From: a virus
Taxonomy: Duplodnaviria; Caudoviricetes
IMG/VR virus record: IMGVR_UViG_3300036376_000009
Span: 25,895-89,894 of that record
Direction: 5' to 3' (one strand)
Length of the DNA: 64,000 nucleotides
Positions 3,961-64,000 of this stretch are shown here, one piece after another. A program made the translations under genes and the position numbers. Positions within the stretch are counted from its first letter, which is position 1; each line of letters opens with the position of its first letter. A model generated the notes under the pieces. It made no database searches and had not been told where the DNA came from. It saw only the letters and a list, made by a program, of their open reading frames with translations.

Positions 3961-4242
3961 GTGATCGTCACGCTCCCGCGGGCCGCTGGCCTGCTCGTCA
4001 AGGGAAGCTGGATGCCCAGGCGGCTCTCGCTCGCGCCGGGCAAGCCGCGGCGGATGGTGGTCGTCGTGAGCTGCCACCGGTGCGGGACCGAGGCCCACAT
4101 CAACCGCGAGGACCCCGAGTGCGGGCACGTCATCAACAGCCTGGGGCACGTCGCCCCCGCGCTGCAGTGCGAAGGGTGCGGCGCCGAGACGGTCGTTCGC
4201 CTCGAGGGGTACGGCCGGGGGCCGGGTGAAGAGTGCGGCTGA
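3961..4242 (+). CDS. Small Cys-rich putative zinc-ribbon protein
   Basis: CHRC and CEGC pairs; abuts both neighbours. Confidence 0.5.
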   Translation: MIVTLPRAAGLLVKGSWMPRRLSLAPGKPRRMVVVVSCHRCGTEAHINREDPECGHVINSLGHVAPALQCEGCGAETVVRLEGYGRGPGEECG

Positions 4243-14815: not shown

Positions 14816-15045
14816 GGTGGGCCGGCGTGATGCTGACCCACGATCGACCGGCAGTCACCGTCGCGTGCGCCGGGCTGGCGCATACCCGCGTCAAAAACTC
14901 ACACGCGTGTCTTTATGCGGGCTTTGACGTTGAGAACGGACGCGCAGCCGGCGCAGGGACACGCGCTTGTGGGGACTTATCGATGCTGGCGGCACGGCGC
15001 CCAACCGTGCCCGGGGACACCGGGCGGACCGAACAAGATCCTGAG

Positions 15046-16635
15046 ATGGCGGTGAGGTTGGTGTTCGAGTCGGGTGGTACCGAGGTCGAACTCGGAGTTT
15101 TCCGCTTGCGTTTGGAGCATCCAGGTGGCAGGATGGGGGGTATGCCCAGCTCCCCCGCTCATCCGGGAGCAGGCTCGTTCGCCATCCCGAACCCGCAGAC
15201 GGCCAAGGAGCCGGTCCTCGGGCGCATCGATGCGCAGCCGAGTCCGCTCAGTACTTCCGTCGACGCCTGGCTCGCGGCCCTGGCGGCCCGCGGCAAGAAG
15301 CCCAACACGATCAAGGCGTACCGAACGTTCATCGGCTCGGCCATCCGCGAGAACGGGTGGCGGACCCCGGCGGACCTGACGTACGAGGCGGTCACCGCCT
15401 GGATGGCGGGCAAGCGCGAGGCCGGCGTGTGGCAGGGGTCCACCTACAACCGCAACCTCACCGCCCTGCGCTCGCTCACCAAGTTCCTTCGCAGGACCAA
15501 GCGGGCCCGCACCGATGAGCTCGAGGACGCCGAGCGGGCCGAGGACGACGGCGGGCCCGGCTCGCGGGCGGCGAGCACCGACGAGGCCCGCGGCATGATC
15601 CGCCTGGCTTGGGCCCGGGGGCTCTCCGACCGCCGGCGGTCGAACGAGGCGGCCCTCGAGCGGCTGTGCTGTTTCAAAGCCGCGCTGCGATCGAGCGAGC
15701 CGGGCGAGTGGCGGTGGAAGCACCTGCAGCTCGACGCGCCGGTGCCGCACATTGCGTGGACCAAGGACGTGCAGAAGAACCGCCGCGCCCAGGACGTCGC
15801 GCTCGACCCCGAGCTGGTGGAGCTGCTGCGGGCGCACCGCGACGCCCGGCGCGGGGCACCGCCCGTGATGGCGGGCGGGCGCCGCAACGGCAATCCCCAG
15901 CTGCGGCGCGTGGATTCGAACGACCCGGAGGCGTTCGTGTTCGCCAGGCGGGCCAGCCGCACGACGTGGCGCGAGGACCGGGCCCGGCTGCAAATCCCCG
16001 GCGAAGATCACCGCGGGCGGCCCTTCAGCCCGCACTCGGCGCGCAAGTGGTTCGAGACCACGCTGCAGCTCGCCGGCGTGCCCGATCGCCTGGTCGACTG
16101 GCTCATGCGCCACACCGGCGACGTCGGCACCCGGTACCTGGATCCGCCGCTGGACGAGCAGCGGCGCGTGCTCAGTCTGCTGCCCGCGCTCTGGCCCGAA
16201 CAGGCCGGCGGCGGGACCGGCGGGGCGGTTTCGACCCAGCGCCGAAGTTATCCACAACGTGAAGATTCTCTCAGTTCGGACTTGACACCAGCTGGCGGCG
16301 TGCCGAATCTGTCTGTCGCTCATCCGGGGCTTGCCCCCACAGACAACCCGGTTCCGGTCCCGTCGCTGCGCCACACCTCGGATGAGCCCCCACCCCTCGG
16401 TGGGACCGATCGGTGCGCGGCGGGACCGGCTCCGGGACTTTCCCAGGGGCCTGCGGCTCCGAGCTTCGGGAAGCACGTCAGGGACGAGACCACGCGTATC
16501 CGGTCGGAAATGCCGAAACCCGGACTCGGACTTTGGAATTCTAACCCGCGAGTAGCAGCAGCGTTGGCCGGCTTCCTTGACGCGTGGGCGAGGCTCCTGA
16601 AAGCAGGAGCCGAAAGTGAACGCCAAGCGTCTTGA
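15046..16635 (+). CDS. int: Tyrosine integrase A; ORF reads through the att core
   Basis: SAM-like N-domain; catalytic R (AALRSSE), K (VQKN), HSAR, H (LMRH), Y (TRYL). Start codon uncertain. Confidence 0.9.
   Translation: MAVRLVFESGGTEVELGVFRLRLEHPGGRMGGMPSSPAHPGAGSFAIPNPQTAKEPVLGRIDAQPSPLSTSVDAWLAALAARGKKPNTIKAYRTFIGSAIRENGWRTPADLTYEAVTAWMAGKREAGVWQGSTYNRNLTALRSLTKFLRRTKRARTDELEDAERAEDDGGPGSRAASTDEARGMIRLAWARGLSDRRRSNEAALERLCCFKAALRSSEPGEWRWKHLQLDAPVPHIAWTKDVQKNRRAQDVALDPELVELLRAHRDARRGAPPVMAGGRRNGNPQLRRVDSNDPEAFVFARRASRTTWREDRARLQIPGEDHRGRPFSPHSARKWFETTLQLAGVPDRLVDWLMRHTGDVGTRYLDPPLDEQRRVLSLLPALWPEQAGGGTGGAVSTQRRSYPQREDSLSSDLTPAGGVPNLSVAHPGLAPTDNPVPVPSLRHTSDEPPPLGGTDRCAAGPAPGLSQGPAAPSFGKHVRDETTRIRSEMPKPGLGLWNSNPRVAAALAGFLDAWARLLKAGAESERQAS
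16248..16256 (+). promoter_or_regulatory. Perfect DnaA box TTATCCACA
   Basis: Exact consensus, ending 26 bp before TTGACA at 16282; function not shown. Confidence 0.4.
16282..16310 (+). promoter_or_regulatory. Putative promoter inside integrase A 3' extension
   Basis: TTGACA-N17-GAATCT; same 229-bp distance to the att element as the copy at 63731. Confidence 0.55.
16318..16474 (+). ncRNA. Candidate novel pseudoknotted RNA (copy A)
   Basis: P1 16318-29/16376-87, P2 16354-72/16412-29, P3 16389-404, P4 16432-47, P5 16456-74; same topology as 63767-63924; G-U pairs favour the + strand. Confidence 0.6.
16511..16528 (-). other. att junction between prophages A and B (tRNA-3'-end-like fragment)
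   Basis: Reverse complement CGAGTCCGGGTTTCGGCA resembles a T-loop/acceptor 3' end; 20/26 identity with 63955-63980 and shared CGGACTCG. Confidence 0.65.
16592..16611 (+). promoter_or_regulatory. Hairpin occluding the RBS of the first early gene of prophage B
   Basis: GGCTCCTG-AAAG-CAGGAGCC; AGGAG (16605-09) lies in the stem; GTG at 16616. Confidence 0.55.
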
Positions 16636-16954
16636 TCCTGGCAAGACCGGCCGATCCCCCAACCCCCGAAACGGCCCGCCCCCCGGCTCACACCGGCGGG
16701 GAGACGTTCGGCTCGCCGATGCCATCGCCGCCGCCGAGCTGCCGCGATGCGAGTTCTGCGACGGGGAAATGGAGCACGACCCCTACCAGCCGTCCGACCC
16801 CGAGGTCGGGGTTCGGGAGGCCCCGGCCGCGTGGACGTGCTGCCTGTGCGGCCACACCGTCACCGAGCCAACACTGTCCGAACTGAAGGACGCGGCCGAC
16901 GACGCCGCGGTTGACGCGCACCGCATGGGGGTGATCGGGGGTGGCGCGTGCTGA
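16616..16954 (+). CDS. Small zinc-finger protein (first early gene of prophage B)
   Basis: CEFC...CCLC; overlaps the integrase A stop and the next start. Confidence 0.6.
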   Translation: MNAKRLDPGKTGRSPNPRNGPPPGSHRRGDVRLADAIAAAELPRCEFCDGEMEHDPYQPSDPEVGVREAPAAWTCCLCGHTVTEPTLSELKDAADDAAVDAHRMGVIGGGAC

Positions 16955-17910
16955 CCGCTCACCAACTCGAGCAGCGCAAGGGCAAGATCACCGCCTCGCT
17001 CGTCCCCGCCATCTGCGGGCTCGACCCGTGGAAGGGGCCCGTCCAGGCGTACCTGGAAATCACCGGCCGCAAGGTCGAGGAGGCCGAGGGCGAGAACCTC
17101 GCCGCCGAGCTCGGGTCGCTGCTCGAAGAGCCGATCATCCGGCTCACCGAACGCAAGACCGGCCGCAAGATCCGCCGCCGCAACATCTGGCGAGTCCTTC
17201 AGGACGGCCCGCTCGCCGGCAAGGTCGGCGCCACGCTCGACTGCGACTACGACGTCGACACCGACTACGGCGAGATCAAGACCAACGGCGTGCTCTCGGG
17301 CTTCGGCATCAACAGCGGCTGGGGCGAGGAAGGGACCGACGAGGTCCCCGAAAAGGTCCACATCCAGATCGCCGCGCAGATGCTGGTCTGCCCCGAGAAG
17401 CAGCTCTGCATCGTGCCCGCCCTGGTCGGACGCAAGAACGGGCTGACCATCTACAAAGTGCACCGCAACAAGGACCTGGTCGAGGCGGTCGGTGACCGCA
17501 TCGCCCGGTTCTGGCGCGACCACATCGAGCCGGACGTGATGCCGCCGCTCGAACAGCCCGCCGACGCCGAGTACATCACGGAGCTGACCAGGTCGCTGCC
17601 GGTCAGGACTGAGCCGGTGGCGATCGACCCGGCCCTGTGCATGGAGTACGACAACTTCCGCGCGATGGAGAAGGCCGGCGAGGAAGGCAAGAAGATCGCC
17701 GCGGCCAAGATCAAGCTCGCCCTCAACGGCGCCGAGATCGGCACGGCGAGCGGGTTCAAGGTCAGCTGCAAGCGCCCCAAGGACAGCCTGGTGTTCGACC
17801 GTGAGACGTTCGAGGCCGAGCAGCCCGAACTTTTCTCCCGGTACACGGTCGCACGCCCCAACTCCCCCCGTCTGCTCGTGACGGCGGAGAAGAAGGCGGT
17901 GACCACGTGA
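16948..17910 (+). CDS. YqaJ-like (lambda exonuclease family) recombination nuclease
   Basis: RKGKITAS.VPAICG..PW; GATLDC..EIKT; QIAAQM. Confidence 0.9.
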   Translation: MLTAHQLEQRKGKITASLVPAICGLDPWKGPVQAYLEITGRKVEEAEGENLAAELGSLLEEPIIRLTERKTGRKIRRRNIWRVLQDGPLAGKVGATLDCDYDVDTDYGEIKTNGVLSGFGINSGWGEEGTDEVPEKVHIQIAAQMLVCPEKQLCIVPALVGRKNGLTIYKVHRNKDLVEAVGDRIARFWRDHIEPDVMPPLEQPADAEYITELTRSLPVRTEPVAIDPALCMEYDNFRAMEKAGEEGKKIAAAKIKLALNGAEIGTASGFKVSCKRPKDSLVFDRETFEAEQPELFSRYTVARPNSPRLLVTAEKKAVTT

Positions 17911-18941
17911 GCCAGATCAACCCCCACAACGTCAGGCGTTCCGCCACCGGCGACACCAGCGGCGCCACCAAGCCCGCCAAGCCCATCGAGACGTTCAAGC
18001 AGACGCTGGCGCTCATGGAGAAGCGGATCGCGGGCGTGCTCCCCAAGCACATCACCCCCGACCGCATCCTCAAGGCCGCGATGGTGGCGGCGTACAAGAA
18101 CAACAAGCTCTACCAGTGCACCCAGCTCAGCATGATGAACGCCATCATGACCGCGGCTCAGCTCGGGCTCGACCCGGGCGGGGCGCTGGGCAGCGCCTAC
18201 CTGGTCCCCTACGACCGCAAGCGCAAGGACGCCAACGGCACATGGGTCTACTCCCACACCGAGTGCCAGCTCATCATCGGCTACCAAGGCATGATCGACC
18301 TCGCCCGCCGCTCGGGCGAGATCGAGAGCATCGCCGCCATCCCGGTGTTCGATGGCGACCAGTTCGACATGGAGCTGGGCACCGAAGCGAAGATCAGCCA
18401 CAAGCCCAACGTCAAGGCTGTTCGGACCGTTGACACGCTGGTGCTGGTCTACGTGGTGGCGAAGTTCCGGGGGCCAGACGGCGCGCCCGCCGGCTTCCAC
18501 GTCGAGTGGATGAGCAAGGCCGAGATCGACGCCATCCGCCGGCGGAGCAAGGCCGCCGACGACGGGCCGTGGGTCACCGATCCGATCGAGATGGCCCGCA
18601 AGACGTGTGTGCGGCGGGCGTTCAAGTACCTTCCCAAGTCGATCGAGCTGCTCGCGAAGCTCGCCGAAATCGAGGCCGAGGGCACCGACGCCGGGGCGCT
18701 GGCCGACATCTTCGACACCACGGCGACGCCGATCGAGCCCGAGCCCGCGGCCGACGCGGCGCCCGCGCAGACCGAGACGGCTCAGCTGCCGGAACCCGCC
18801 AACGTGAACCCGCTGCCCGGCGTGTTCAAGGACGCCCAGGAGGGCCGCACCGAGGCCGCGATGCAGCAGCAGGCGAGGCCGTCGCGGGCGGCCGCCACCG
18901 CCGCCAAGCTCAACGGCAACCACGGCGGACCGCCCGCCTGA
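17907..18941 (+). CDS. recT: RecT single-strand annealing protein
   Basis: LPKHITPDR, AQLGLDP....AYLVPY, QLIIGYQGMIDLARRSG, EMARKT. Confidence 0.95.
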   Translation: MSQINPHNVRRSATGDTSGATKPAKPIETFKQTLALMEKRIAGVLPKHITPDRILKAAMVAAYKNNKLYQCTQLSMMNAIMTAAQLGLDPGGALGSAYLVPYDRKRKDANGTWVYSHTECQLIIGYQGMIDLARRSGEIESIAAIPVFDGDQFDMELGTEAKISHKPNVKAVRTVDTLVLVYVVAKFRGPDGAPAGFHVEWMSKAEIDAIRRRSKAADDGPWVTDPIEMARKTCVRRAFKYLPKSIELLAKLAEIEAEGTDAGALADIFDTTATPIEPEPAADAAPAQTETAQLPEPANVNPLPGVFKDAQEGRTEAAMQQQARPSRAAATAAKLNGNHGGPPA

Positions 18942-25711: not shown

Positions 25712-26268
25712 GAGCGCGGCATTGGTACCACTGCACCGATCGGCGCAGCGACTCGGAATGGGTTGCCCAGCGCCGCGCGCCGCTCATTCGGGCTGACAGC
25801 GAGCCCGAGACGCCACGACTGTGCGTGGCGCCCAGCGTCGCTCAGGCCCTGGTGGCCGTGTGGTGGTTTCGAGACGTGACGGTGTACATCACGCCCATGC
25901 GGCGCACCGTGCCGCCCAGCGGCGTGTTCGACGCCTGCATGACCCAGGAGCGATGGATCATCCCGCCCGTCAAACTGACGCGCGTGGGCGTCATCCCGTT
26001 CGACTCGATCCACCCCGTGCAGCTTGAGTCCGATCCGAGGGAATACCCCGGCTACCGGGCGTGGGAGAGGCGGGCGTTCCGGCTGGAAGGCCTGTGTCGC
26101 GCTGTTCGAGCCCACCTGCCTGATGCCCACGCGCCCAGCGTCGAACGGTTCGCGGCCAAGTGCCGAGAGTTCTTCGACGCCAAGCAGTGCGAATTGGAAG
26201 AGGAGCGGGCCAAACAGTGGGGCCTGGACGAGCCAGAGTTGCCGGCACGGCGGGAGGTGCTGCCATGA
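25708..26268 (+). CDS. Hypothetical phage protein
   Basis: Coupled overlaps with both neighbours; EPETPRLCVAPSVAQAL. Confidence 0.6.
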   Translation: MRARHWYHCTDRRSDSEWVAQRRAPLIRADSEPETPRLCVAPSVAQALVAVWWFRDVTVYITPMRRTVPPSGVFDACMTQERWIIPPVKLTRVGVIPFDSIHPVQLESDPREYPGYRAWERRAFRLEGLCRAVRAHLPDAHAPSVERFAAKCREFFDAKQCELEEERAKQWGLDEPELPARREVLP

Positions 26269-29594: not shown

Positions 29595-30605
29595 ATGACG
29601 CCCACGCCCACCAACACCTCTCCCACCGCCCCGACGCCATCACCGCCGCCGCGCATCAGCAAGGCCGCCAAGCTCCCGCCGATGCCCGTCGACGCGGAGG
29701 CGTTCCTGCACGCGTGTGAGCACGTGCCGGCGGACATCATCGGGGCCAGGGCGCTGGCGTGGTGCATCGCGTGGAGCGGGGGCCACGTGGACCAGGCGGC
29801 GCTGGCGCAGACGGCGGGGCTGTCGTTCGACCGCGTGAAGGACCACTGGCGGACGATCATGGAGGGGGTGCCGGAGCTGGTGCGTCGGCGAGCCCAGGCG
29901 GACCAGCGAGCCGAGCGGGCGCGGCAGCACGCCCAGGCGGCGGCGCAGGGACGATGGGGCTTGTTGAGAACGGATGCTCCGGGCATCGCGGCACATGCCC
30001 CGAGCATCCCAAACCATGCTCCGGGCATACCCGACGGTGATGCTCCGAGCATGTCGGGGAATGCTCCGAGCATCAAGAAGGATGCTCCGGGCATCCGGGA
30101 TGGACCGCCGCCACCCCTTATTGAGAATGCTCCGAGCATCGATCCACATGCTCCGGGCATCGAAAACCATGCTCCGAGCATGGCGGCGCGGAGGGTGCGC
30201 AAGGAGGGGGGGGGGGGGGAGGATGGTTTTACCCACCCCAAACCCAAACCATCACTTCAAAATCCGCAGGGCGCGCGCCGAAACGTCTGGACGCCGGAGA
30301 GTTTGGATGAGCTGGCTCGGGTTGGGGTGGGGGCGTACCGGATCCTCGATGACCTCGGAGTAGCTGAGCCTGCGCTGTCGCAGCTCGCCGAATCGGAGGC
30401 GGTGCCGACCGCCGCGATCATCGAGACGGCACGGGCGGTGCTCGCCACGAAGGGGCCCGTAACGTCGCGCCCGGGGCTGCTGGTTGCACGCCTGCGCAAG
30501 GCGTTCGGTCTGCCAGCCCTGAGGGCCGCCCCGCTCAAGACAGAGGCCAGGAAGGCCGCTCAGGGGCTGGCGGAGACGATCCGCCGCCGGAAAGGGAACC
30601 CGTGA
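29595..30605 (+). CDS. Putative phage replication initiator with internal iteron array
   Basis: Follows dnaB; central APGI/APSI heptad repeats encoded by 21-bp-period DNA repeats; lambda O-like organisation (inference). Confidence 0.6.
   Translation: MTPTPTNTSPTAPTPSPPPRISKAAKLPPMPVDAEAFLHACEHVPADIIGARALAWCIAWSGGHVDQAALAQTAGLSFDRVKDHWRTIMEGVPELVRRRAQADQRAERARQHAQAAAQGRWGLLRTDAPGIAAHAPSIPNHAPGIPDGDAPSMSGNAPSIKKDAPGIRDGPPPPLIENAPSIDPHAPGIENHAPSMAARRVRKEGGGGEDGFTHPKPKPSLQNPQGARRNVWTPESLDELARVGVGAYRILDDLGVAEPALSQLAESEAVPTAAIIETARAVLATKGPVTSRPGLLVARLRKAFGLPALRAAPLKTEARKAAQGLAETIRRRKGNP
29974..30181. repeat. Nine 13-bp near-palindromic repeats ATGCTCCG(A/G)GCAT, candidate iterons
   Basis: Starts at 29974, 29995, 30016, 30040, 30061, 30082, 30127, 30148, 30169. 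Confidence 0.9.
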
Positions 30606-32467: not shown

Positions 32468-33655
32468 TCAGCGGGTGGCCTGCAGGATCAGCCGCATGGC
32501 GGTGCGCTTCGCGGCGGCGCCCTCGCCCAGCAGCTTGAGATGGTCGCGGCGGGAGCCCTGCACCTTGGGGGAGCGGTTGTGGTCCATCCACTCGGTGACC
32601 GCGTTCAAGAGCGCCCAGGCGGTGCCGCCGATGCCGTCGATGCACTGCTCGGGGCGGTCCATCGCGGCCCGCCACTCGGCCAGGACCTTGGCCCGCTTCT
32701 CGGCGTAGGCCTCGCGATGCTCGAGCAGCTCGGGCTCAGCGCCGAAGATGGCCGAGTAGGCGGCATCGAAGTATTCGGCGCGGCTGGTGGCATCCATCGA
32801 GATCCCGGCCAGGCGCTGCGCGGTCTGCTCATACGTGGTCAGGCCCTTCGCCGCGATCCCCAGCACACGGCGAGCTTCGACCATGGCGGAGGCGATGTCG
32901 CCATCGTGCCGCACCCGGAACGCCGTCCCGGCCCGGACGCTCGCGTCGATCCCGCCGAGCGCTTGGGTGTAGGTGTTGTTGCAGACAACGCGGACCATGG
33001 TCCAGCAGGCGGAAAGCGCCATTGAACCATCGTGGGCATTGGAGAGCAGCAGATACGGGACGGTCTCATCCTCGCCGGACTTCCCGACGCGGACAGACTT
33101 GGGAGCCTTGACCAGGAGGAACACCTTACGGCCACCCAACAGCGAGCCGCAGGTTTCCATGGTCAGGGCCGCATCAGCGCCGACGAGGGCATCGGCGAAC
33201 CGGCCCAAGTCGACGTTCTGAACGATCCGGTAGCCGTCGCTCACCAGCCCGAGGACCTCGCCGGTATCGGACCGCACGTTGGCCCGCGCCGGCAGCTCGC
33301 GGCGCTCGCCGTTGACCTCGCAGAACACCGGCCGCGACTCGACCCACCAGCCGCAGAACCGCTTCATCGCGTCCTCGCCGGTCAGGTTGTCATCGATCAC
33401 CGTGCCCAGCCCGTGCCAACCGGGCACCCGAGCGAGGCCCAGCGAATCGGAGCGCGTGAGCTGGTGGTTCGTCACCGCCTCACGCACCGTGCGTGCGCCG
33501 CCGTACTCGGCCGCATCCGCCGTGATCACACGCACCCGCTCGACTTCGATGATGTCCCCACGCGCCTGGTCCGCGAGCTTCGCGTTGATGCTCGGAGAAA
33601 TCAGGGAGGAACCGCTGTCAGAACCAGCACCGGGAGAGAAAAGACCGCCCTTCAT
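32468..33655 (-). CDS. DUF932 (LGT_TIGR03299-like) protein
   Basis: WHGLG, VRSDT..VLG.VS..Y..VQN, YLLLSNAHDG, RVVCNNT, GTAWALLNAVTEW.DH. Confidence 0.9.
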   Translation of the reverse strand: MKGGLFSPGAGSDSGSSLISPSINAKLADQARGDIIEVERVRVITADAAEYGGARTVREAVTNHQLTRSDSLGLARVPGWHGLGTVIDDNLTGEDAMKRFCGWWVESRPVFCEVNGERRELPARANVRSDTGEVLGLVSDGYRIVQNVDLGRFADALVGADAALTMETCGSLLGGRKVFLLVKAPKSVRVGKSGEDETVPYLLLSNAHDGSMALSACWTMVRVVCNNTYTQALGGIDASVRAGTAFRVRHDGDIASAMVEARRVLGIAAKGLTTYEQTAQRLAGISMDATSRAEYFDAAYSAIFGAEPELLEHREAYAEKRAKVLAEWRAAMDRPEQCIDGIGGTAWALLNAVTEWMDHNRSPKVQGSRRDHLKLLGEGAAAKRTAMRLILQATR

Positions 33656-33736
33656 ATGCGACCACCTTTCGTGAATCAATGCGCCCCCCACCCCAACCCA
33701 TGCAGATTCCACAAGAATCCGCACGCTCATCGGTCA

Positions 33737-33764
33737 AATATACCCACGTTGGAAGTGCTGTCAA
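33737..33764 (-). promoter_or_regulatory. Leftward sigma70-type promoter for the DUF932 operon
   Basis: Minus strand TTGACA-N16-TATATT in an AT-rich patch. Confidence 0.65.
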
Positions 33765-62425: not shown

Positions 62426-64000
62426 ATGGATTCGTTCGCGTTTCCAGGCATAAACAAGGCCGGTTCGCGGTCGCCGCTCCCCGAGCGGCGATTCAAACTC
62501 ACGATTCATGATGACGTGACCGGCGAGATAATCCTTCTCGCACGCTTGCCAGACCTACCAACATCGGCGATACTGAATCTCATGCATACCCCACCTGCAC
62601 ATGCGGGAGGGGCCATGGCTGCCCGTACCCTGGACGGAGCCGCGAACGAGTCCGTGCCCCTTGGGCGGATCGAGGCTCAAAAATCCGAAGTTGCCGCCGC
62701 GTTCGAAGCGTGGAGCGTTCGCGTCAAGACCCGCCTCAAGCCCGCTTCGTACTACAGCTACGTCAAGATCGTGGAGTCGGCGCTGCGCGACAACCCCGGC
62801 TGGACGCGGCTGGACGACCTCACCTTCGACGCCATCACCGCGTACATCGACGGCAAGCTCAACGCCGGGGACTGGGCCCGGCTCACGTACAACAAGAACC
62901 TCCGCGTCCTGCGCGACTTCACGCGGTTCGTGACCAAGGCGAGGCGCCGAGCCGGCCAGGCCGACGCCGCGGACCCGCTCGAAGACGCCGAGCCCCAGCC
63001 GGGCAAGGACTCCAGCGCCGGCGGCCGGGCCGCGACGACGGAGGAAGCACGTGCGCTGCTCCGCTACACGTGCGCACGCGAGGAGGCCGACTCCCGCGCC
63101 ACCGGCAGCCGCTCGATCATCCGGGCGTGCATGTTCCTCGCGGGCATGCGCCCGGGCGAGCCCGAGCGGCTCCGGTGGAAGCACGTCAACCTGGACCACT
63201 CCACCCCGTTTTTCACGTGGACTCCCGAGGTCAACAAGAACGGCCGCAAGGAATTCGTGCCGATCGCCCCGGAGCTGACCGAGTTGCTGCGGGCGCACCG
63301 CGACCGGCTGCGCGAGCGGGTCAAGTCCGACGGCGGTGTCGAGGTGTCCCGGGACCGGCGGAACAAGACCAGCTCGCTGCGCCGCTACGACCCCGACGAC
63401 CCGGAGGCGTTCGTGGTCCCCAAGACCACGTCGGGGTGTCAGTGGGCCAAGGACGTGCGCAAGGCCCGGATCAAGGAGGCGGACTGGCGGGGGCTCCCGT
63501 TCACGCCGAAGGCGGCGCGACGCTGGCACGAGACCACGCTGGTTAAGGCCGGCGTGCCTCAGAACATGGTCGACGCGCTCATGAGACACGCGGTGACCGT
63601 GCCGCGCCGGTACTTCGACCCCACGTTGGAAGAACTCGCAGAAAAATTATCGGTGCTTCCTAAACTCTGGCCGGGAATGGACTTACGCACGATCGACGAA
63701 GGACACGCGCCCAGAAATCTTGAATCCCGCTTGACAGATGAATCGGAAAAGTCGATAGTCAATGAATCCTGGTCGCGTAGTGAAGCGGACTTCACGGACC
63801 CCTCCGCGTCAAAGTCGACCAGGACTGAGCCGCGTGCCTCACGGCGCGTGGAACAGACGACAGCGTACGAGGGGTCCATGAACGCGGGGCCTCGCCCCGC
63901 GTCAAGCGAGCCGGTTGGGCCGCTGCCGCTGGTTGAATCCGTCATGTCGAATCTGGGAATGCCGAGGGGCGGACTCGAACCGCCGACCTCCGGGTTATGA
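62426..64000 (+). CDS. int: Tyrosine integrase B; ORF ends inside the tRNA (antisense)
   Basis: AGMRPGE, VNKNG, KAAR (H replaced by K), LMRH, RRYF. TGA at 63998-64000 is the complement of the anticodon loop. Alternative start 62615. Confidence 0.9.
   Translation: MDSFAFPGINKAGSRSPLPERRFKLTIHDDVTGEIILLARLPDLPTSAILNLMHTPPAHAGGAMAARTLDGAANESVPLGRIEAQKSEVAAAFEAWSVRVKTRLKPASYYSYVKIVESALRDNPGWTRLDDLTFDAITAYIDGKLNAGDWARLTYNKNLRVLRDFTRFVTKARRRAGQADAADPLEDAEPQPGKDSSAGGRAATTEEARALLRYTCAREEADSRATGSRSIIRACMFLAGMRPGEPERLRWKHVNLDHSTPFFTWTPEVNKNGRKEFVPIAPELTELLRAHRDRLRERVKSDGGVEVSRDRRNKTSSLRRYDPDDPEAFVVPKTTSGCQWAKDVRKARIKEADWRGLPFTPKAARRWHETTLVKAGVPQNMVDALMRHAVTVPRRYFDPTLEELAEKLSVLPKLWPGMDLRTIDEGHAPRNLESRLTDESEKSIVNESWSRSEADFTDPSASKSTRTEPRASRRVEQTTAYEGSMNAGPRPASSEPVGPLPLVESVMSNLGMPRGGLEPPTSGL
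63731..63759 (+). promoter_or_regulatory. Putative promoter inside integrase B 3' extension
   Basis: TTGACA-N17-GATAGT; 229 bp before the tRNA discriminator position (63960). Confidence 0.6.
63767..63924 (+). ncRNA. Candidate novel pseudoknotted RNA (copy B)
   Basis: P1 63767-75/63816-24, hairpin 63780-95, P2 63796-804/63869-77 (extendable), P3 ~63829-45, P4 63882-902, P5 63905-24. Confidence 0.6.
63960..64000 (-). tRNA. 3' half of a tRNA with CAT anticodon (Met/Ile2/fMet unresolved), truncated by window; integration site
   Basis: Reverse complement TCATAACCCGGAGGTC-GGCGG-TTCGAGT-CCGCC-CCTCGGC-A: anticodon loop, T-arm, acceptor strand; no encoded CCA. Confidence 0.9.

Follow-up and report, generated by a model that had tools for sequence, protein, structure and literature searches.

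The 64,000-nt window analysed here is the right-hand 64 kb of an 89.9-kb provirus record in IMG/VR (IMGVR_UViG_3300036376_000009, positions 25,895–89,894) and encodes two tyrosine integrases, A and B, which are 44% identical to each other. Inside the long 3′ part of each integrase reading frame we find a promoter motif followed by two interleaved helices, P1 and P2, which make up the putative RNA element described in this report. A first-pass annotation, made from the sequence without database searches, had proposed the copy in integrase A (copy A, 16318–16474) as a candidate novel pseudoknotted RNA beside the phage attachment (att) site. The element does adjoin att, but it does not occupy a spacer: it sits in the non-conserved linker of the integrase reading frame, between the catalytic domain and the att core.

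Integrase A occupies the plus-strand frame 14827–16635 (P0001), with a conserved part that begins at ~15217 and the catalytic R-Y residues encoded at ~16132–16137. Integrase B occupies 62615–64000 on the same strand, and its tail enters the antisense 3′ end of a tRNA-Met gene at the end of the window. Homology between the two stops at a set of L-W-P codons (16189–16197 in A, ~63672 in B), and the coding signal in third-position GC collapses at ~16230 and ~63630, respectively. Beyond L-W-P the frames stay open for 145 more codons in A and 108 in B, that of A running through the RNA element and the 8-nt att core (16509–16516, plus strand) up to 16635. The identical 8 nt recur at the junction of copy B with tRNA-Met (63958–63965). 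The early operon follows on the plus strand, led by a gene for a zinc-ribbon-like protein of 112 residues (16616–16954) whose start overlaps the end of integrase A, then a YqaJ/RecE-like exonuclease (16948–17910), RecT (17907–18941) and further early genes.

The predicted promoter of copy A (16282–16310, plus strand) consists of a −35 box, TTGACA, at 16282–16287, a 17-nt spacer and a −10-like GAATCT at 16305–16310. Its predicted transcription start, 16317–16318, falls on the first base of P1, which begins 36 nt after the first base of TTGACA, as the first-pass annotation had it. The 5′ strand of P1 (16318–16329) pairs with 16376–16387 in a helix of 12 bp, 11 of them Watson–Crick and one G·U. 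The 5′ strand of P2 lies inside the loop closed by P1; at its minimum-free-energy extent P2 joins 16347–16372 to 16412–16436, around a core of 13 + 5 bp (16354–16372 with 16412–16429), and a possible outer segment pairs 16333–16337 with 16446–16450. P1 and the P2 core had been drawn at these same positions beforehand. The hairpin P3 (16389–16404, plus strand) likewise appears in the fold of copy A; it is a variable feature, present in copies A and B and in the homolog L008 and missing in several others. Two more hairpins of the original drawing were lost: in the predicted fold P4 (16432–16447) turns out to belong to P2 as its outer part, P5 (16456–16474) is weak, and neither is conserved as drawn. 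Some GC-rich hairpin does follow P2 in many homologs. Reading by eye, we also noted an A/C-rich, CACAA-like motif (16338–16347, plus strand) that lies past the 5′ strand of P1 and ahead of the P2 core, with similar motifs in about 10 of 15 homologs and in three reading frames, and an ‘AAC’ that often directly follows the P1 3′ strand in homologs.

Copy B (63731–63882, plus strand) lies inside the tail of integrase B, with TTGACA at 63731, P1 at 63767–63775 with 63816–63824, and a P2 core at 63791–63804 with 63869–63882. Its helices stand at the same offset from TTGACA as those of copy A and differ from them in sequence, an observation already made at first pass. Comparison with shuffled sequences, one of the checks suggested with that annotation, came out in favour of structure in both copies. 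The 157-nt plus strand of copy A folds at −86.2 kcal/mol, where shuffles average −72.3 ± 4.5 (z = −3.1) and none of 200 did as well; its minus strand gives z = −1.8, while copy B gives −4.4 on the plus and −2.3 on the minus strand. Because the nested minimum-free-energy fold of copy A contains P2 and not P1, the only ways left for P1 to form are a pseudoknot with P2 and a transient state.

Conservation and covariation of the helices

A protein search, three collections of contigs and 401 host-class genomes supplied the relatives; their sources are Phycisphaerales metagenome-assembled genomes (MAGs), IMG/VR and metagenomes. Fifteen non-redundant loci were compared, anchored on the promoter motif only and scored for helices in a strand-symmetric way. 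P1 was detected in all 15, with 8–14 Watson–Crick pairs, a 5′ strand that starts between −2 and +3 of the predicted +1, and a 3′ strand 48–87 nt downstream. P2 was detected in 14, with a main segment of 14–34 nt whose 5′ strand lies within the P1 loop and whose 3′ strand comes after that of P1. Compared with decoy anchors taken from these loci, both helices stand out (Fisher p = 2e-16 for P1 and 6e-16 for P2). Helix sequences are unrelated from locus to locus. Measured from the first base of P1 to the last of the P2 core, the element is 104–129 nt long in 14 of the 15 loci; L028, which has no clear P2, has a measured span of 67 nt. Altogether, the layout of promoter, P1 at the predicted +1 and crossing P2 recurs in ~19 of 21 non-redundant integrase relatives, which bears out the strand order P1–P2–P1′–P2′ originally described for copy A.

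The idea of covariation, which had rested on the two copies in the window, also holds when widened to ~20 loci. A global MAFFT alignment of the 15 elements had 37% column identity and no structural register and was therefore unusable. For the analysis of covariation we used alignment A3, a MAFFT alignment of six loci built without structure. On A3, P1 is 98.6% paired, and 11 of its 12 pairs have changed on both sides; sliding the 3′ partner by 1–3 columns lowers pairing to 24–44%. RNAalifold returns P1 as the consensus structure of the same alignment. The ungapped comparison of L021 with L023 (91% identical) reveals five double compensatory changes, two in P1 and three in P2, with 98.6% of positions paired. 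P1 is clearly under selection. Fold z-scores of the linker, averaged over 23 loci, are −2.8 on the plus and −2.2 on the minus strand, against +0.08 for the plus strand of the upstream integrase coding sequence. A covariance model (R1) made from P1 only in the six alignable elements recovers its seeds, L014 (E = 0.002) and L006 (E = 0.24); it misses copies A and B and is too weak for a family-wide or genome-wide search.

The promoter motif is conserved with the helices. Its −35 box (TTGACA or TTGACT) lies 31–153 nt past L-W-P, with a −10-like nAnnnT 17–18 nt further on, and it was found by exact pattern in 17 of 19 loci and overall in ~19 of 21 non-redundant loci. Four further loci carry the promoter in a form with one mismatch in the −35 box, each together with P1, and in the close homologue L038 P1 accompanies a canonical TTGACA promoter. 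The motif occupies two reading frames relative to the integrase gene (int); what is conserved is thus the DNA and not the protein. The whole 64 kb contains only three such sites, two of which lie beside att. The third, a TTGACA-N17-nAnnnT site on the minus strand (33737–33764), heads the minus-strand genes at 32468–33733 in a divergent region and may be the promoter of a lysis/lysogeny switch. A promoter scanner calls the promoter of copy B, with 10 of 12 consensus matches.

The integrase reading frame across att

In every relative the integrase frame is open for 94–149 codons beyond L-W-P. Across 19 non-redundant loci the tails contain no stop in the int frame in 2,419 codons, compared with 60 and 109 stops in the other two frames. 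Tail ends fall into two classes: integrated copies run into an antisense tRNA 3′ end, and copies in the form of the phage attachment site (attP) run into a conserved amphipathic helix beyond the core. The last 30 codons of integrase A (16543–16635, plus strand) encode this C-terminal helix as in the attP-form homologs. All attP-form loci have a co-directional gene that adjoins or overlaps the stop codon of the integrase, and in L003 a tRNA-Met overlaps the end of the integrase frame.

Between the catalytic domain and the att core, the linker evolves unlike a protein-coding segment. In three close pairs its pN/pS (the ratio of non-synonymous to synonymous change) is 0.5–2.8, against 0.14–0.20 in the catalytic domain, and its synonymous divergence is lower than that of the catalytic domain (0.16 vs 0.38, 0.04 vs 0.44 and 0.26 vs 0.50). 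Together with the end of integrase similarity at L-W-P and the collapse of third-position GC, these values rule out a purely coding explanation of the region. Selection on the linker, as far as substitution patterns reveal it, works on nucleotides and not on amino acids.

Six distant integrase relatives from the same bacterial class (L047, L048, L057, L062, L064 and L067) have tails of 100–147 codons that run into antisense tRNA genes, and a reading frame that spans att seems widespread in this class. Among the distant integrases of the 401 genomes, the few with a locatable linker have no TTGACA/P1 element, and their linkers are weakly structured except in L064 (z = −3.6).

Repeats that may serve recombination were found around the element. 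In several homologs of the attP form, namely L017 (~4040–4100) and, at equivalent places, L011 and L008, the att cores are the centres of 14–16-bp perfect inverted repeats, which are probably core-type integrase binding sites. Around promoter B (63719–63768) there are three TGAATCC-like repeats at ~21-bp spacing, with two more near the core (63935–63955), and in several homologs the TGAATCC word is likewise seen ahead of the −35 box or close to the core. These repeats are candidate arm-type integrase sites, whose occupation could occlude the promoter. They flank the RNA element without overlapping it.

The closest parallel to this arrangement among described phages comes from Mx8, where attP lies inside the integrase coding sequence (intP/intX) and the C-terminus is swapped on integration (PMC6070905, PMC4383910). 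The two systems share an att core within the integrase frame downstream of the catalytic tyrosine, an antisense tRNA 3′ end as target, exchange of the C-terminus and co-directional genes after int. They differ in sequence, with a BLASTP match of only E = 0.04 over 58 residues around the catalytic tyrosine, and a tblastn search with integrase B against the phage collection gave no match. In Mx8 the stretch from catalytic domain to core is only ~110 nt; it contains one hairpin and some short direct repeats, and lacks the TTGACA promoter as well as P1 and P2. Immediately ahead of the antisense tRNA-like core, the int gene of Mx8 (L034, 6360–6480) has GTGACAGCGG twice as a tandem direct repeat and a hairpin of 11 bp.

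A proposed structured leader and competing explanations

The element could not be assigned to a known RNA family, in agreement with the first-pass annotation. Rfam 15 (4227 models) at gathering threshold gave no match in the 64-kb window and tRNAs only in seven homolog loci, and a permissive scan of 16150–16750 gave one chance match (E = 7.8). An intrinsic terminator was rejected, with no terminator-like site in 15800–17200 or 63000–64000 and no U-tracts after P2 in homologs. So was a −1 frameshift stimulator, since there is no slippery heptamer ahead of P1 and the frame is open in any case. A folded recombination site like the attC of integrons was rejected as well, the crossover core lying 75–190 nt downstream at the tRNA end. 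The order P1, P2, P1′, optional hairpin and P2′, with P1 at the very 5′ end, is reminiscent of the nested double pseudoknot of ribozymes like that of hepatitis delta virus, whose catalytic C lies in J4/2. However, P1 is 8–14 bp here versus 6–7 bp there, the P3/L3 hairpin of these ribozymes is absent, the segment between the P2 5′ and P1 3′ strands is 4–27 nt and not conserved, and no Rfam ribozyme model matches the element.

Our preferred interpretation, to which we give slightly better than even chances, is that the element forms a structured 5′ leader RNA of the early operon across attP, made from the conserved sigma70-type promoter in the integrase linker. Of the roles put forward at first pass, an early-operon leader fits the anatomy best. 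The transcript would start at the promoter at 16282–16310, cross the attP core and continue into the zinc-ribbon/exonuclease/RecT early operon. Its first 8–14 nt, the P1 5′ strand, would pair with a segment 45–75 nt further on and so bury the 5′ end, and the loop closed by P1 would then pair with the next 20–35 nt to give P2, the outcome being either a knotted fold or two successive states. Both promoter and leader are located to the integrase side of the crossover point, so that the operon loses them upon integration; it would recover them only when the genome is excised or circular or when, as in this window, a neighbouring prophage in tandem supplies them.

That P1 is coupled so strictly to the predicted 5′ end speaks for a 5′-terminal fold with a protective or organising role. 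We tentatively suggest, with rather less than even confidence, that such a structure determines how stable the long early mRNA is or how it is processed. Emory, Bouvet and Belasco reportedly established in 1992 that a helix at the very 5′ end is the rule for 5′-terminal stabiliser hairpins. Known stabilisers, such as that in the 5′ untranslated region of ompA, are simple hairpins. The resemblance would lie in the position of P1, which in all homologs starts between −2 and +3 relative to the predicted 5′ end; the difference is that P1 closes a loop of 35–65 nt whose nucleotides serve as the 5′ strand of a second long helix. More broadly, we regard the element as a new RNA motif within a known general category, the structured leader RNAs of phages, with an unusual embedding in a coding linker and att arm.

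Several observations weigh against the leader interpretation. The start site, and transcription itself, are predictions from sequence, to which neither a terminator nor a 3′ end could be added. The −10 box of copy A is poor, leaving the promoter with 8 of 12 consensus matches and uncalled by the scanner. In L009 and L018 the promoter is kept and the P1/P2 element is missing; these two loci (L009 1326–1928, L018 2851–3423) retain the int-over-att layout, with the promoter ~50 nt from a long palindromic core, and amount to a natural ‘deletion’ control. Ribosomes translating int read the region too and would melt the structure on int mRNA. The structure is also nearly strand-symmetric, and the mean linker z-scores of the two strands (−2.8 and −2.2 over 23 loci) are not significantly different. 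Strand assignment therefore rests on promoter direction and on a modest excess of G·U over A·C mismatches in the helices, 27 versus 14 across the family and 6 versus 0 in P1. The G–U pairs from which the plus strand had first been read are thus matched by a family-wide excess, but the fold scores do not separate the strands.

The coexistence of P1 and P2 is a further difficulty. Nested folding favours P2 in 14 of 15 loci, forcing P1 costs ~12 kcal/mol, and some links are short, with 3 nt between the P1 3′ and P2 3′ strands in L004; in copy A, L006 and L011 the outer P2 segment is reached after only 2–5 nt. With such links, P1 together with a full-length P2 is sterically doubtful, and the simultaneous pairing implied by the first-pass pseudoknot is to that extent in doubt. 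Since P1 is selected, yet P2 wins the nested folds and some links are too short, P1 would form with the inner part of P2 or before P2.

The position of the element also invites comparison with put, a processive antiterminator that acts on its own RNA polymerase, in which case the element would promote read-through of the long early operon. Like put in HK022, it would be a structured RNA close to the promoter of an early phage operon, with a conserved structure but no conserved sequence: it lies just downstream of the predicted early promoter, the operon behind it is long and co-directional, and there is one element per phage. HK022 put is built from two adjacent stem-loops, is ~70 nt long and does not cross, whereas the helices here interleave (P1–P2–P1′–P2′) over 104–129 nt. 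The element has no sequence relationship to put and no model match, and no terminators were found near it (15800–17200, 63000–64000), so we regard antitermination as unlikely. We give an equally small chance to control of the integrase mRNA, through an RNase III-type site or a translational roadblock that limits the long integrase form, comparable to lambda sib though located on the side of att where int lies. This would suit the location of the element between the catalytic domain and the conserved C-terminal helix of the integrase frame, as well as P2, a long interrupted duplex of 20–35 bp like the RNase III sites of phages. P1, however, is tied to the predicted start of the internal promoter and not to any feature of int, and would be purposeless on an mRNA begun upstream; nor is there a slippery site or an int-frame stop nearby.

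Two other proposals appear less probable still, and about equally so. One is an RNA–RNA recognition code, a phage-specific immunity or antisense device like the c4 RNA of P1/P7 or the CI RNA of P4, which in a lysogen might be antisense to the 3′ half of tRNA-Met. The a-b-a′-b′ order and the fast compensatory divergence between close relatives do resemble antisense determinants, and the promoter of the integrated copy points into the antisense tRNA. Against this, the leader is more conserved than synonymous sites, which indicates purifying and not diversifying selection; the helices are far longer than known kissing or antisense loops, and neither C4 nor any other Rfam family matches. The other is a role at the DNA level, in which no functional RNA is made and the inverted repeats shape the P arm of attP as a cruciform, through the spacing of protein sites or by pairing in single-stranded intermediates. 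Such a role would account for the location in the P arm, between the candidate TGAATCC arm-type repeats and the core, and for the fact that both strands fold better than shuffles. Binding sites, however, would be conserved, and the helix sequences are unrelated among integrases that are 35–45% identical; interleaved repeats with spacers of 45–60 nt are poor cruciform substrates, G·U exceeds A·C, the start of P1 is tied to the promoter, and Mx8 has the same int-over-attP layout without such an element. Least probable of all, and in our view very unlikely, is an attP-arm RNA that acts as a cofactor of the tyrosine recombinase, binding the integrase linker or C-terminal helix or joining the intasome, and by which the phage would sense its integration state.

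The connection of a promoter to an operon by recombination has parallels in other mobile elements that bear on the leader model. Tn916 has a promoter whose effect across the att junction depends on the state of the element. In ICEKp1 a promoter on one side of the recombination site is likewise reported to drive genes beyond that site only when the element is circular (PMC13023037). Neither system is known to involve a conserved structured leader or to have the promoter within the integrase coding sequence.

Tandem prophages and phage biology

Integrase B ends in antisense tRNA-Met codons and integrase A in a helix beyond the core, from which it follows that the window holds two tandem prophages. 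The tail of copy A has the attP form, with the core inside int and the helix at the end, and copy A therefore looks like the junction of the two, at which the core connects the P arm of phage A with the P′ arm and the early operon of phage B. Phage B spans ~16.5–64 kb of the window. For the attL of phage A, the left end of provirus record L033 is uninformative, as the record begins inside phage genes. Homologs are carried by two Phycisphaerales MAGs, which indicates Phycisphaerales as the host group. Elsewhere in the window (29973–30190) there are three tandem copies of ~65 nt, each made of short palindromes of the GATGCTCCGGGCATC type, which resemble iterons or operators.

To our knowledge, phage regulation in Planctomycetota is essentially unstudied. 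The motif described here matches no curated family, and its helices covary across ~20 phages of this phylum (Phycisphaerales). The RNA and its internal promoter are written into an integrase linker that must stay open, and recombination at att connects promoter and leader to, or disconnects them from, the early recombination and replication operon. If the leader controls stability, read-through or processing, early expression would be physically tied to the excised state. For annotation, the lesson is that a long integrase ‘tail’ in high-GC prophages can hide a promoter, a structured RNA and an att site together.

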